DNA from: Candidatus Obscuribacterales bacterium
GTDB taxonomy: Bacteria; Cyanobacteriota; Vampirovibrionia; Obscuribacterales; Obscuribacteraceae
Reading direction: 5' to 3'
DNA: 64,000 nt
Assembly (NCBI GenBank): GCA_965228855.1
Contig: CBDDIJ010000003.1
Coordinates: 3,072,001 to 3,136,000 of the forward strand
In this document: positions 6,278 through 60,982 of the stretch, one piece after another
Numbering within the stretch: position 1 is the stretch's first letter
Layout: each line of letters begins with the position of its first letter
Notes under the pieces: model-generated
Seen by the model: the letters and a program-made list of their open reading frames with translations, nothing else
The model's database searches: none
Told to the model about the DNA's origin: nothing
Program-made: the position numbers and the translations under genes

Positions 6278-7008
6278 CCCTACTATAACCGACGGTAGCA
6301 CCAGTTACCAAAGACTGGCTCAACGCAGGCATTTCCAGCCCTCGCCCCGAGACGGATTATTTTAAAGCTAGCCTTTGGCTACGACAGATAGACGCTTTTC
6401 GCGAACACGATCTATCTACTATAATCGACGGTAGTACCAGTTACCAAAAACTGGCTCAGCGCAGGCATTTCCAGTCCTCGTCCCAAGAGGGCGTATTCAA
6501 AAACTAGCGTTTGGCTACGACAGATAGACGCTTTTCGCGAAATCCGGCATCGCACGATAGCCAAAAATCATCCCTACTATAGAGCCCAGCAGGCTTATTC
6601 CTCAGAAAGGCTCATCTCCACGCGCTTCTCCGCCTTCACTACAAATGGCCAGTGCCCAAAGATAGCGTTTGGCTACGACAGATAGACGCTTTTCGCGAAA
6701 TCCGGCATCGCTGGATAGCCAAACACCCCCCAACATCCCTACTATAGAGCCAAGCAGGCTCAATCCGCAGAAAGGCTCCCCTCCGCGCGCTTCTCCGCCT
6801 TCATTACAAATGGCCAGTGCCCAAAGACAGCCTTTGGCTACGAGAGATAGACGCTTTTCGCGAAATCCGGCATCGCTGGATAGCCAAAAACAACTTTCTG
6901 ACTAGTCCTTCTCGATGGTACCGTTGAAAACCTTCCCGACGACGCGTTCTACGGTCGGAGGTCATCCTAACTCGTATAGTAGGGTGCCCGGGGGCATCGC
7001 TGGATAGG
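6278..7008. repeat. Composite intergenic repeat array (REP/BIME-like): four units in AABB order sharing a 56-bp core with terminal inverted repeats
   Basis: Core TTTGGCTACGACAGATAGACGCTTTTCGCGAAATCCGGCATCGCTGGATAGCCAAA at 6510-6565, 6668-6723 and 6833-6888 (few mismatches), truncated at 6374-6405, fragment at 6993-7007; each unit starts with (CC)CTACTATA at 6278, 6416, 6572, 6737; inverted TATAGTAGGG at 6975. Confidence 0.9.
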
Positions 7009-31839: not shown

Positions 31840-31968
31840 TTCAGTTTCAACGACGAAATGCGTTCGTTTCAGCCGTTTGTGAACGCTCTATCACGTGCGC
31901 AATGGTTGAAACACTTGAGTAATGTTTTGCAATCAAAAGCCTAATAAGAATAAAGAGGGGCTGCAAAG

Positions 31969-33789
31969 TTGTATGATCAGACTCCTTCAATATATAGGGA
32001 TCTCATGAAACAGGATAAATCAAAGGGCGGACCGGAGAGACGGGTCCGACGGATGAGCAACGAGGAGTCTTCCTCGTACAAGGAAACTCGCAGACGGCGC
32101 GAGGAAGGCGAACCGGAAGGTGGTTCGGAAGAACGCGGCGATTTCCGGCGCGATCGGGAGCCACCGCCGAATAACGTAAATCTCTACCTCAGCCCACGAT
32201 TGATGGACCTGGCGACGGAGCTGGCAGACGAAGCCAGGATGCCTGTCAAACTTTACCTGGTCGAAGCAATCAAGTACGTTCTCCTGGCTCAAGCAGGACG
32301 GATAGACAAGCGCGATAAATATAAAGCAGAATTCGTTTCCGGCGCTCGCATGAAGACGAGCACATGGAGACCGGAAGAGAAGAAAGATGCCGAGCACGAA
32401 CTGGACGAAGCAGGGGACGATGAGGCGAAAGCACAACTTTCAACATCTCCGTCGGGTATCGATGCTCCTGGTGACTTCGGCTCAGATGACGAATCGGTCT
32501 CGGATGCAGTAGTCGATTCCGAAGACGAAGAATTCGACGAAAGCGATGCTGACGACGATGAGGATTCGAGTGAGCACTTGAAGGAACGACCAGAAGGCGA
32601 AGAAGAAGAAGAAGAAGAAGAAGAAGACGACGACGACGACGACGATGATGACGAAGACGACGAAGAAGATGATGACGAAGACGACGAAGAAGAAGATGGT
32701 GAGTTCGAGCGAGCACGCGCTGCTGCAATAGCGAAGCGAGAAGCAGCCAAAGAGGAAGCTCGTCGAACCACTGGGGACGATTCGTCTTCCAAGAGACCAC
32801 GTAAACGCGATGATGAAAACGAAACCCGTGGACGTGGTCGCTATGGCGACGAAGGCGGTCGCAGTGGTGGAGGAGAAGGCGGACGTGGACGTTCCGGCGG
32901 CGGCGGATATGCAGCTGGCGGACGTGGTCGCACGAGCACGGGCGAGGGCCGCGGTCGTTCTTCCGGTGGCGGATATGGCGACGGCGGTGGTCGCGGTCGT
33001 TCCGAAGGCGGCTACGGACGAGGTCGCGCAGAATCCGGTGAAGGCGGCGGTGCGCGTGGACGTTCCAGCAGCAGCGGCGGCGGATACGGTGGCGGCGCAG
33101 GTCGTGGTCGTTCCGGCAGCAGCGGCGGCGGATACGGTGGCGGCGCAGGTCGCGGTCGTTCCGGCGATGGTGAAGGCGGAGGTGCTCGCGGACGTTCCGG
33201 CGGCAGTGGCGGCGGATACGGTGGCGGCGCTGGTCGCGGGCGTTCCGGCGATGGTGAAGGCGGCGGTGCTCGCGGACGTTCCGGCGGCAGCGGCGGCGGA
33301 TACGGTGGCGGCGCAGGTCGCGGACGTTCCGGAAGCGGTGAAGGTGCCGGCGCTCGTGGACGTTCCGGCGGCAGCGGCGGCGGATACGGTGGCGGCGCTG
33401 GTCGCGGACGTTCCGGAGGCGGTGAAGGCGGCGGCGCTCGTGGACGTTCCGGCGGCAGCGGCGGCGGATACGCAGGCGGCGCAGGTCGCGGGCGTTCCGG
33501 AGGCGGTGAAGGTGGCGGCGCTCGTGGACGCTCCGGCGGCAGTGGCGGCGGATACGGTGGCGGCGCGGGTCGCGGTCGTTCCGGCGGCGGTGAAGGCGGC
33601 GGCGGCGCTCGTGGGCGTTCCGGCGGCAGCGGTGGCGGATACGGTGGCGGCGCGGGTCGCGGTCGTTCCGGCGGTGGCACTGGTCGCTCCGGTGGTGGCA
33701 CCGGTCGCGGTGGCGCCGGTCGTTCTGGCGGCGGCACCGGGCGTGGTGGCGCATCGGGTGGACGCAAACCAGCAGGCCGCAAGCCATAA
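31969..33789 (+). CDS. Low-complexity protein: predicted RHH domain, acidic D/E tract and RG/GYG repeat tail
   Basis: 606-aa ORF filling the gap between comF and tlpA in the same orientation, with an AGAGGGG RBS; nucleotide differences between repeat units are largely synonymous in this frame. Confidence 0.8.
   Translation: MYDQTPSIYRDLMKQDKSKGGPERRVRRMSNEESSSYKETRRRREEGEPEGGSEERGDFRRDREPPPNNVNLYLSPRLMDLATELADEARMPVKLYLVEAIKYVLLAQAGRIDKRDKYKAEFVSGARMKTSTWRPEEKKDAEHELDEAGDDEAKAQLSTSPSGIDAPGDFGSDDESVSDAVVDSEDEEFDESDADDDEDSSEHLKERPEGEEEEEEEEEDDDDDDDDDEDDEEDDDEDDEEEDGEFERARAAAIAKREAAKEEARRTTGDDSSSKRPRKRDDENETRGRGRYGDEGGRSGGGEGGRGRSGGGGYAAGGRGRTSTGEGRGRSSGGGYGDGGGRGRSEGGYGRGRAESGEGGGARGRSSSSGGGYGGGAGRGRSGSSGGGYGGGAGRGRSGDGEGGGARGRSGGSGGGYGGGAGRGRSGDGEGGGARGRSGGSGGGYGGGAGRGRSGSGEGAGARGRSGGSGGGYGGGAGRGRSGGGEGGGARGRSGGSGGGYAGGAGRGRSGGGEGGGARGRSGGSGGGYGGGAGRGRSGGGEGGGGARGRSGGSGGGYGGGAGRGRSGGGTGRSGGGTGRGGAGRSGGGTGRGGASGGRKPAGRKP
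32599..32697 (+). repeat. Coding trinucleotide run (GAA)9 (GAC)6 and continuing D/E codons
   Basis: Direct reading; encodes EEEEEEEEEDDDDDDDDDEDDEEDDDEDDEEED. Confidence 0.95.
33169..33675 (+). repeat. Six tandem 84-bp coding repeats (GEGGGARGRSGGSGGGYGGGAGRGRSGx)
   Basis: GGTGAA recurs at 33169, 33253, 33337, 33421, 33505 and 33589; degenerate units lie upstream. Confidence 0.95.
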
Positions 33790-44966: not shown

Positions 44967-46412
44967 ATGCAAAAGCTTGCCCTTGTAGGTCTGGGTGCGT
45001 CCGGTCTCTTCGCGTTAAAAGAATTAGCAGGAGCGCCAGTCGAAGTACACGTTTTCGACGTCGGACCGCAGTACAGCAAAAGATACGCCTGCCCGATCGA
45101 TCAGGGCAAGCTCACGGTCTGCCCGCCCAAGGCATGCAGCTACTGCGCTCCCGGACAGTCAGCCGGAAGCTGGAACGACTTCAAAGTCATCCTCTCAGCA
45201 TCGCCGGTGATCGGTGGACGACTTTATGAGCTCATTGGCGAACAGGAACTGCAGAAACGTCTCGACACGGTGCGTCAAACAATCCTGACGCACGCGCCCG
45301 TCGAAATCCCAGTGGTGAAGCCAAACAAAGATGATCTTGATTGGATCAACAAACGCGCAACGCTCGCCGGAATGACCTACCACTATCAAGAGCTATTGCA
45401 CTGCGGCTCAGACAACGCGCCGGCAATCAACACCAGCATTCTCAACGAAATTATCGAAAAAGGTCCCAACATTGTTTTTCACTGGGACTCGAAAGTCCAG
45501 TCGGTAGCCAGACGTGGAGAGCGTTTCGCCGTCCGTCATGACGGATATCGCAAACCAACAAGTAACGAACAAGAAGACATTTTCGACTACTGCATCCTTT
45601 CGGTCGGCAGAGGCGGAGCACACTGGCTTACGCAACAAGAATTCTACAAAGCGCTGGACATCTATCCAGGTCAGGTAGACATCGGCGTGCGGGTCGAAAC
45701 AAGCTGCTACTTCACCGAAGAGGTGGACAAGCGCTTCTACGAGCCAAAGCTCTATTACATCAGCCGTCACACAGGCGACGTAGTTCGCAACTTCTGCTCT
45801 AACCCTCGAGGGTATGTCACGCCGGAAAACCATCGAGACTACGTACTAGTGAATGGTCACTCGAAGATGTTCGAGAAATCGGAGAACAACAACTTCGCGG
45901 TTCTAGTCTCGAAAACATTCACTCGTCCGTTCAAAGATCCGCAGCTCTATTCACAAACCATCGCTAAAGTCGTCAACATGCTTGCCGGCGGCGGACCACT
46001 CGTGCAGCGCCTGGGCGATTTGCGCGCCGGAAGAAGAACCAAATCGCTCGCTAACAACATGATCAAACCCACTCTGGAAGCCGAGTGCGGAGATATCTCG
46101 CTGGCGTATCCGCACCGAATTCTGACAAGCATCATGGAATATCTCGATGCCCTCGATAAAATTTGTCCTGGCGTAGCGCACGACTCGACGCTATTGTTTG
46201 CCCCTGAGTGCAAGAGCTATCCGGATTCGATTGCTGTGAATAAATCAATGGAAACCAACATCGAAAACTTGTTCATCATCGGCGACAGCAGCAGCTGGAC
46301 GCGCGGTGTCGGACAGGCTACCACGAGCGGTCTACTGGCTGGCGAAGGCGTCAAAAAGAAGCTCAAAGAGTTGGCACCGGCACCAGCTACGGTGGCACAG
46401 GCCGTATCGTAA
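44967..46412 (+). CDS. FAD-dependent oxidoreductase (COG2509-like)
   Basis: LVGLGASGLFA Rossmann motif, VGRGG, VDIGVRVE, RNFCSNPRG, VNGHS, NNNFAVL, METNIENLFIIGD. Confidence 0.85.
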   Translation: MQKLALVGLGASGLFALKELAGAPVEVHVFDVGPQYSKRYACPIDQGKLTVCPPKACSYCAPGQSAGSWNDFKVILSASPVIGGRLYELIGEQELQKRLDTVRQTILTHAPVEIPVVKPNKDDLDWINKRATLAGMTYHYQELLHCGSDNAPAINTSILNEIIEKGPNIVFHWDSKVQSVARRGERFAVRHDGYRKPTSNEQEDIFDYCILSVGRGGAHWLTQQEFYKALDIYPGQVDIGVRVETSCYFTEEVDKRFYEPKLYYISRHTGDVVRNFCSNPRGYVTPENHRDYVLVNGHSKMFEKSENNNFAVLVSKTFTRPFKDPQLYSQTIAKVVNMLAGGGPLVQRLGDLRAGRRTKSLANNMIKPTLEAECGDISLAYPHRILTSIMEYLDALDKICPGVAHDSTLLFAPECKSYPDSIAVNKSMETNIENLFIIGDSSSWTRGVGQATTSGLLAGEGVKKKLKELAPAPATVAQAVS

Positions 46413-46750
46413 CAGTCAATCTCCAGCATGGAGCGATAGTCGTATCGTGCTAGTCAATTTTCAGCACCGAGCAATAGCCGTATCGTGCTAGTCAATTTTC
46501 AGCACCGAGCAATAGTCGTATCGTGCTAGTCAATTTTCAGCACCGAGCAATAGCCGTATCGTGCTAGTCAATTTTCAGCACCGAGCAATAGCCGTATCGT
46601 GCTAGTCAATTTTCAGCACCGAGCAATAGCCGTATCGTGCTAGTCAATTTTCAGCACCGAGCAATAGCCGTATCGTGCTAGTCAATTTTCAGCACCGAGC
46701 AATAGCCGTATCGTGCTAGTCAATTTTCAGCACCGAGCAATAGCCGTATC
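46403..46750 (+). repeat. Tandem array of a 38-bp unit: 8 near-identical copies, 1 degenerate 5' copy and a 6-bp 3' stub; no spacers
   Basis: CGTATCGTGCTAGTCAATTTTCAGCACCGAGCAATAG(C/T) starting at 46441, 46479, 46517, 46555, 46593, 46631, 46669, 46707; degenerate copy at 46403. Confidence 0.97.
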
Positions 46751-47108: not shown

Positions 47109-47215
47109 GGACGGCTCCAGATGGACGGGGACGGCTCCGGATGGACGGAGATGGCTCGGGATGGACGGGGACGGCTCGGGTGGACGGGGACGGCCCGGGA
47201 TGGACGGGGACGGCT
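47109..47215 (+). repeat. G-rich 20-bp tandem repeat, about 5 copies
   Basis: GGACGGCTC(C/G)(A/G)GATGGACGG units at 47109, 47129, 47149, 47169, 47188, 47208. Confidence 0.9.
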
Positions 47216-47327
47216 GCGAAGCAGATCCGAGTTCGATTTAGATGTATTGTATGACTAATCGGAATTTTGGAACAAAAAGAATTCCGATTAGACATGTTGG
47301 TCCCCTAACGAGAGGTTGGGATAGCCA

Positions 47328-47440
47328 GCTCTAGGTCTTCGGGTTCTATGTCTTCGGTTCTAAGTCTTCGGCTCTACGTCTTCGGCTTTACGTCTTCGGC
47401 TTTACGTCTTCGGCTATACGTCTTCGGCTCTACGTCTTCG
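47328..47440 (+). repeat. 14-bp tandem repeat, 8 copies
   Basis: GTCTTC at 47335, 47350, 47364, 47378, 47392, 47406, 47420, 47434; consensus GTCTTCGGCTCTAC. Confidence 0.92.

Positions 47441-58450: not shown

Positions 58451-60982
<2,532 letters not shown>

Follow-up and report, generated by a model that had tools for sequence, protein, structure and literature searches.

Nucleolin and FUS combine an acidic tract with an RG-rich tail and display Tyr and Arg stickers in Gly/Ser spacers. In G3BP1, the modules follow the order dimerisation domain, acidic intrinsically disordered region (IDR) and RG-rich IDR (PMC7181197). Bacterial RNA condensates, in the literature considered, are built by RNA enzymes with disordered tails, such as RNase E and the DEAD-box helicases; the RhlE and type II RhlB helicases are described as having, at either terminus, fast-evolving IDRs responsible for RNA binding and phase separation (PMC11260450, PMC13462270). 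Among DNA-binding proteins, those of the ribbon-helix-helix (RHH) superfamily (Arc, CopG, PutA-RHH, AmrZ, CopG/BrnA-type antitoxins) are typically 45-100 residues long. Most RHH proteins are reported to be regulators, and CdbA of Myxococcus xanthus is described as an essential RHH nucleoid-associated protein with no long tail (PMC7156744). Here we analyse a gene in a 64,000-nucleotide stretch (the window) of the genome of a Candidatus Obscuribacterales bacterium, from a group of uncultured organisms related to cyanobacteria (contig CBDDIJ010000003.1, positions 3,072,001 to 3,136,000), whose product joins a predicted RHH domain to an acidic linker and a long tail of Gly, Arg, Ser and Tyr. These are known modules in an undescribed architecture, the layout of which recalls eukaryotic granule proteins. 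In the literature, of which subscription journals lie largely outside the coverage, no description was found of an RHH domain fused to such a tail, nor of this family; Pfam and NCBIfam scans assign the protein to no family either, in line with the earlier note on this DNA, which had recognised no described one.

The ordered segment of the protein, NVNLYLSPRLMDLATELADEARMPVKLYLVEAIKYVLL (about 32173-32286), finds Arc as its best match among PDB profiles, and almost all matches returned by fold searches are RHH proteins. In alignments A1 and A3 a strand with alternating hydrophobic residues is followed by two helices. The AlphaFold2 (AF2) model of the domain has helices at residues 13-25 and 30-48 and an extended N-terminus, with a per-residue confidence (pLDDT) above 90 for residues 11-40. 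Modelled as a homodimer, the domain reaches a score of 0.52, the best control having 0.00, and the contacts of the model (8-8, 7-9, 10-7, 11-7 and helix B with helix B) describe an antiparallel two-stranded sheet. By these models, the segment is predicted to be an RHH homodimer belonging to the superfamily by fold, which bears out both the fold and the dimer proposed in the earlier note. That note had called the segment the only ordered-looking one. Comparison of 46 of the 59 family matches, from 22 genera, shows further conserved parts besides the RHH domain: a basic N-terminal motif is matched by regular expression in 31 of the 32 homologues with a C-terminal tail (in the AF2 model a helix at 11-25, pLDDT 66-79, predicted template-modelling score 0.45), and an EF..W-type extension with an invariant Glu is common to all homologue forms. 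The last residues of the domain model have low confidence (pLDDT 53-56).

The open reading frame (ORF) at 31969-33789 on the + strand encodes 606 residues from a TTG and has the described layout of ordered segment, acidic region and G/R/S tail with spaced Tyr. The true start is probably the ATG at 32005, because homologues, at the ATG aligned with it, open with MK[HQ]DKSKGG or MT[HQ][ED]N, and because the TTG overlaps a conserved TATGAT/TATCAT hexamer. In 23 of 41 homologues, a hexamer with at least five of six positions matching TATAAT precedes the ATG by 20-45 nt, compared with 4.4 expected from shuffles, a count that omits five homologues with uncertain starts and in which kin are not independent. 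A two-hexamer promoter scan found no promoter for the gene. Further upstream, GTAATG-x-TTT is invariant in all eight aligned genus-level upstream regions, three of which have differing upstream sequence; elements of this type are not enriched genome-wide (27 versus 19 in the control). Compared with the nearest genome (G007), nonsynonymous and synonymous differences per site (pN/pS) are 0.016/0.087 in the N-terminus and RHH domain and 0.017/0.137 in the tail, and the pN/pS ratio of the tail is 0.12-0.19 in three further close pairs. Among the six 28-residue units of the tail, third codon positions account for 13 of the 19 variable columns. Judged by these substitutions, the frame is translated, as had been supposed, and the tail is under purifying selection; it is therefore no neutral expansion. 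Codon usage resembles that of ribosomal proteins (98.6th percentile of 2,337 ORFs), a value driven by the repeats; the non-repeat part alone stands at the 84th percentile.

The longest pure Asp/Glu (D/E) run has exactly the 33 residues given in the earlier note (residues 211-243, 32599-32697) and is the longest in the genome; in the set of 13,915 six-frame ORFs with 120 residues or more, the next has 18. In the same set, the longest G/R/S/Y tract of the genome is also found here (336 residues versus 121 for the next). The tail consists of 54% Gly, 16% Arg and 12% Ser with 12 Tyr, mostly spaced every 28 residues; its length of about 320 residues and its six 28-residue units stand as first described, and a 29-residue unit has to be added. 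The comparisons drawn from it fared less well. The tail has GRGRS as its motif, the protein containing 25 RG but only 2 RGG, and at least three RGG are found in just 2 of the 46 homologues. The tail lacks Gln, and with it the SYGQ character of FUS. The pure D/E run occurs in only 2 homologues (G000 and G007); because this run is not conserved and RGG is rare, the nucleolin analogy is weak, and the protein has no RNA-recognition motif (RRM).

The conservation of the tail among homologues, which range from about 210 to 680 residues, was assessed with a filter for at least 60 residues of basic, aromatic, Gly-rich and aliphatic-free sequence. Such a tail is present in 41 of the 46; thus the expectation that homologues keep their charged tails held for the basic, aromatic part and failed for the acidic one. 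Three of the five exceptions are cut by contig ends. The repeat units of different homologues are unrelated (for example GGESGYKRRTE, YGRKRSDEGGGSS and KPFRSRSEGGEG), and the tail is C-terminal in 32 proteins from 16 genera and N-terminal in 14 proteins from 6 genera. The tree needs four changes of tail side, and a single clade with N-terminal tails is not rejected (approximately unbiased test, p=0.30). Eight of 25 loci are convergent to a PHO4/DUF47 operon, including N-tail (g54, g50) and C-tail (g10, g14, g22) genera, and because both forms share this position they appear to be orthologous. It is the chemistry of the tail that is conserved, not its sequence or side. In 10 of the 46 homologues (L003, L005-L007, L009, L012, L014, L016, L027, L041) a contig end cuts the tail, so genes of this kind are often incomplete in assemblies and in databases.

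Of 104 Obscuribacteraceae genomes, 59 contain one match to the profile each (in 22 of 37 genera; among the genomes of high quality, in 25 of 38), and 145 genomes representing the other families of the class contain none. The family is thus small, single-copy and lineage-restricted. A wider profile adds no convincing member within the Obscuribacteraceae (two weak matches, E 0.02-0.04), and in 301 genomes of the phylum it gives 16 weak matches to the RHH core only. Five of the six weak-match ORFs tested are small CopG_antitoxin-like proteins, all below the Pfam cut-off, which hints at an origin of the family from an antitoxin-type RHH protein. A search of 1.84 billion representatives returned 38 matches, of which 37 were judged by eye to be family members; none of these has another folded domain.

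The protein resembles several described systems in part. It shares with RHH proteins the strand-helix-helix fold and the predicted antiparallel-strand homodimer, and its nearest sequences outside the family are CopG_antitoxin-like, but its size, long disordered tail, EF..W extension, acidic core and lack of a toxin neighbour are atypical. The likeness to CdbA is at the level of fold only and tied with many RHH proteins, no PDB profile match to CdbA being obtained at E<=10. The CdbA strand, as published, carries K8/S10/Y12 and ends at P14, whereas the strand here reads N/N/Y and ends in S-P; K8, described as needed for DNA and cyclic di-GMP binding, corresponds to Asn in most family members. 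CdbA is also reported as essential, and the present family is missing from many relatives. The DEAD-box IDRs sit on RNA enzymes in the accounts considered; the tail of the window protein is attached instead to a dimer predicted to bind DNA. The module order reported for G3BP1 is matched in all 17 homologues with an acidic block, from 7 genera, in which the block lies between RHH domain and aromatic tail whichever side the tail is on, kin among them not being independent. G3BP1 is nevertheless no homologue: its dimerisation domain is NTF2 instead of RHH, and here there is no RRM and the acidic block is optional. An acidic tract with an RG-rich tail and Tyr/Arg stickers in Gly/Ser spacers are shared with nucleolin and FUS; unlike these, the protein has neither RRM nor zinc finger by Pfam, and no Gln-rich prion-like region. 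CarD of Myxococcus, a bacterial regulator, is described with a similar layout, a folded N-terminal domain followed by a disordered DNA-binding HMGA-type C-terminal region, but the window protein has no CarD/TRCF domain and no RGRP AT-hook in its tail. The protein is no member of the nucleolin, FUS, G3BP, CarD or antitoxin families, and probably none of the CdbA family either.

Similar tails were sought in the same genome. The tail filter passes 13 of 9,470 ORFs, three of them RNA enzymes: two DEAD-box helicases, one of which is of the DbpA type, and an rRNA methylase (SpoU). The other helicase (L080, G000:C2:2449395-2451533, - strand) has a 207-residue C-terminal tail of YGEKPRYGDKPS (YGEKPR) repeats, and this tail with its Tyr-Gly-Lys/Arg repeats closely resembles certain tails in the RHH family. 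A PcrA/UvrD helicase (L083, G000:C2:2088537-2091512, - strand) has a 121-residue insert rich in G/R/Y/N before its tudor domain.

The function that we favour, with a probability somewhat short of even, is that of an accessory tether between nucleoid and RNA, or of a condensate scaffold: an RHH dimer anchored on DNA, with tails that would bind RNA and cluster. The homodimer would sit on the chromosome, its strand pair binding DNA with relaxed specificity, and would display two long disordered Arg/Gly/aromatic tails. By analogy with RNA helicase tails these would probably bind RNA of any sequence and gather it into clusters in cells, and the acidic linker, where present, might damp them as in G3BP. 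A bolder version is doubtful: that the Obscuribacteraceae independently built a FUS/G3BP-type scaffold from an antitoxin-like RHH protein, anchored to the chromosome, with tails that would nucleate RNA-rich droplets at defined loci (for example at nascent rRNA or mRNA) and an optional acidic linker that would act as an autoinhibitory switch. Several observations weigh against a DNA-anchored RNA binder. Of the 46 homologues, 42 have an RHH core of net negative charge, and in only 6 was a basic residue seen by eye on the exposed, DNA-facing side of the strand, where the residues are polar, N/[NSHQ]/[YFH...]. The acidic block is present in only 17, and two complete homologues (L013 and L052) have no tail by the filter. 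Of the 13 ORFs that pass the tail filter, ten encode something other than an RNA enzyme: the RHH-tail protein itself, and others that include a primase, a YHYH protein and unannotated ORFs. Both DEAD-box helicases come from contig C2, and contamination of the genome is put at 5.8%. Finally, the family is absent from 45 of the 104 genomes, including all of genus g21 (0/15), which means that the gene is dispensable; in non-matching genomes with an orthologous PHO4 gene, another gene lies downstream in 4 of 4.

Alternatively, the RHH domain may have lost DNA binding and be only the dimerisation hub of a G3BP-like cytoplasmic RNA-condensate scaffold, a possibility to which we give a low probability. 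The acidic core and a variable, mostly non-basic strand face agree with such a hub, as do the likeness of the tails to those of RNA enzymes and the dimer-acidic-RG order published for G3BP1 (PMC7181197). However, position N69 of the strand is near-invariant in alignment A1, genus g50 retains the canonical R-x-T-x-Y strand, and the charge that the core lacks could come from basic flanks. A polar strand face of the Arc kind is no obstacle to reading DNA, which likewise counts against a mere hub. Conversely, the protein may act on DNA only, its RHH domain occupying many sites like CdbA and its basic tail compacting DNA in the manner of an HMGA or histone-H1 tail. Published precedents exist in CdbA, as an RHH nucleoid protein, and in CarD, as a bacterial protein with an HMGA-type tail, and the window tail has 22 RGR; this account is unlikely all the same, since RGR is not conserved (at least three in 12/46), RGRP occurs twice or more in 1/46 and not at all here, regularly spaced Tyr/Phe (at least five in 43/46) would fit RNA stickers better, and the genome already has five HU/IHF genes.

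We consider it quite improbable that the protein is an ordinary sequence-specific RHH transcription factor whose arms are tolerated expansions or serve to recruit a partner (for instance RNA polymerase or the ribosome). Among orthologues the strand residue that faces DNA varies (Y/F/H/N/S/G/A/W), no regulated neighbour is conserved and purifying selection on the tail rules against neutral expansion, even though most RHH proteins are reported as regulators (PMC7156744), the upstream element is conserved in the genus, and the N-terminal helix and EF..W extension look like partner-binding motifs. Last, the nearest outside matches would suit a type II antitoxin or partition adaptor with an RHH domain, or the repeats might be an artefact. 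These explanations are largely refuted and very improbable: no toxin, ParA or small neighbour is conserved in 25 loci with flanks of up to 6 kb, viral contigs, plasmids and phages give no match to the family, and selection acts in frame. The gene stands alone, without a partner gene, and the type II antitoxin groups (CopG/BrnA, RelB, ParD) were rejected for want of a conserved small neighbour.

Table 1. Features of the RHH-tail gene and its product (window positions).
Feature	Position	Strand	Basis or remark
GTAATGWTTT conserved upstream element, possible regulatory site	31919..31928	+	Alignment of genus upstream regions
-10-like hexamer TATGAT, probable own promoter	31972..31977	+	27 nt before ATG
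RHH-tail protein gene	32005..33789	+	594 aa from probable ATG; AGGGA 4 nt upstream; purifying selection in frame
N-terminal basic motif RRVRRMSxEExSSYKExRRRR, predicted helix	32038..32100	+	Regular expression, alignment A4, AF2
RHH domain: strand NVNLYLSP, helix A, helix B	32173..32301	+	Profile, fold searches, predicted homodimer
Family-specific C-terminal extension KYxxEF..TW, E invariant	32302..32367	+	Alignments
Acidic linker, net -51 over aa 151-240	32374..32706	+	Composition; holds D/E run
G/R/S/Y tail, 320 aa, aa 287-606, net +36	32827..33786	+	Composition, repeat scan
Tail repeats: six 28-aa units; one 29-aa unit	33037-33120, 33169-33588; 33589-33675	+

The neighbours in the window are a phosphoribosyltransferase, presumably ComF-like, and a thioredoxin-like protein, both kept in close relatives only. 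Elsewhere in the window, 9.2 copies of a 38-bp unit, 96% identical and without spacers, are arrayed in tandem at 46401-46750, directly after an oxidoreductase-like ORF; 20-bp and 14-bp arrays lie at 47109-47440, and intergenic tandem repeats of 136 and 165 bp at 6280-6890. An ORF of 843 residues (58451-60982, - strand) begins with a stretch resembling a signal peptide, contains a long low-complexity region rich in Y/G/Q/P and has HELGH in its C-terminal part, which we take to be a metallopeptidase-like motif. In genomes of family f6, small CopG_antitoxin-like RHH genes (L092-L097, L099, L101, L102) are mostly preceded by a conserved 100-residue ORF, with no Pfam match in the two tested; the two genes are possibly an undescribed toxin-antitoxin pair.

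If the favoured function is true, RNA condensates would be linked directly to the chromosome, through a dedicated scaffold that has the fold of a DNA-binding protein and is not an enzyme. The family itself constitutes a natural experiment, in which one locus and one 70-residue domain are combined with dozens of unrelated repeats, at either end, and the chemistry alone is kept. Such natural variation therefore makes the sticker-spacer rules and the idea of an acidic switch testable with bacterial proteins.
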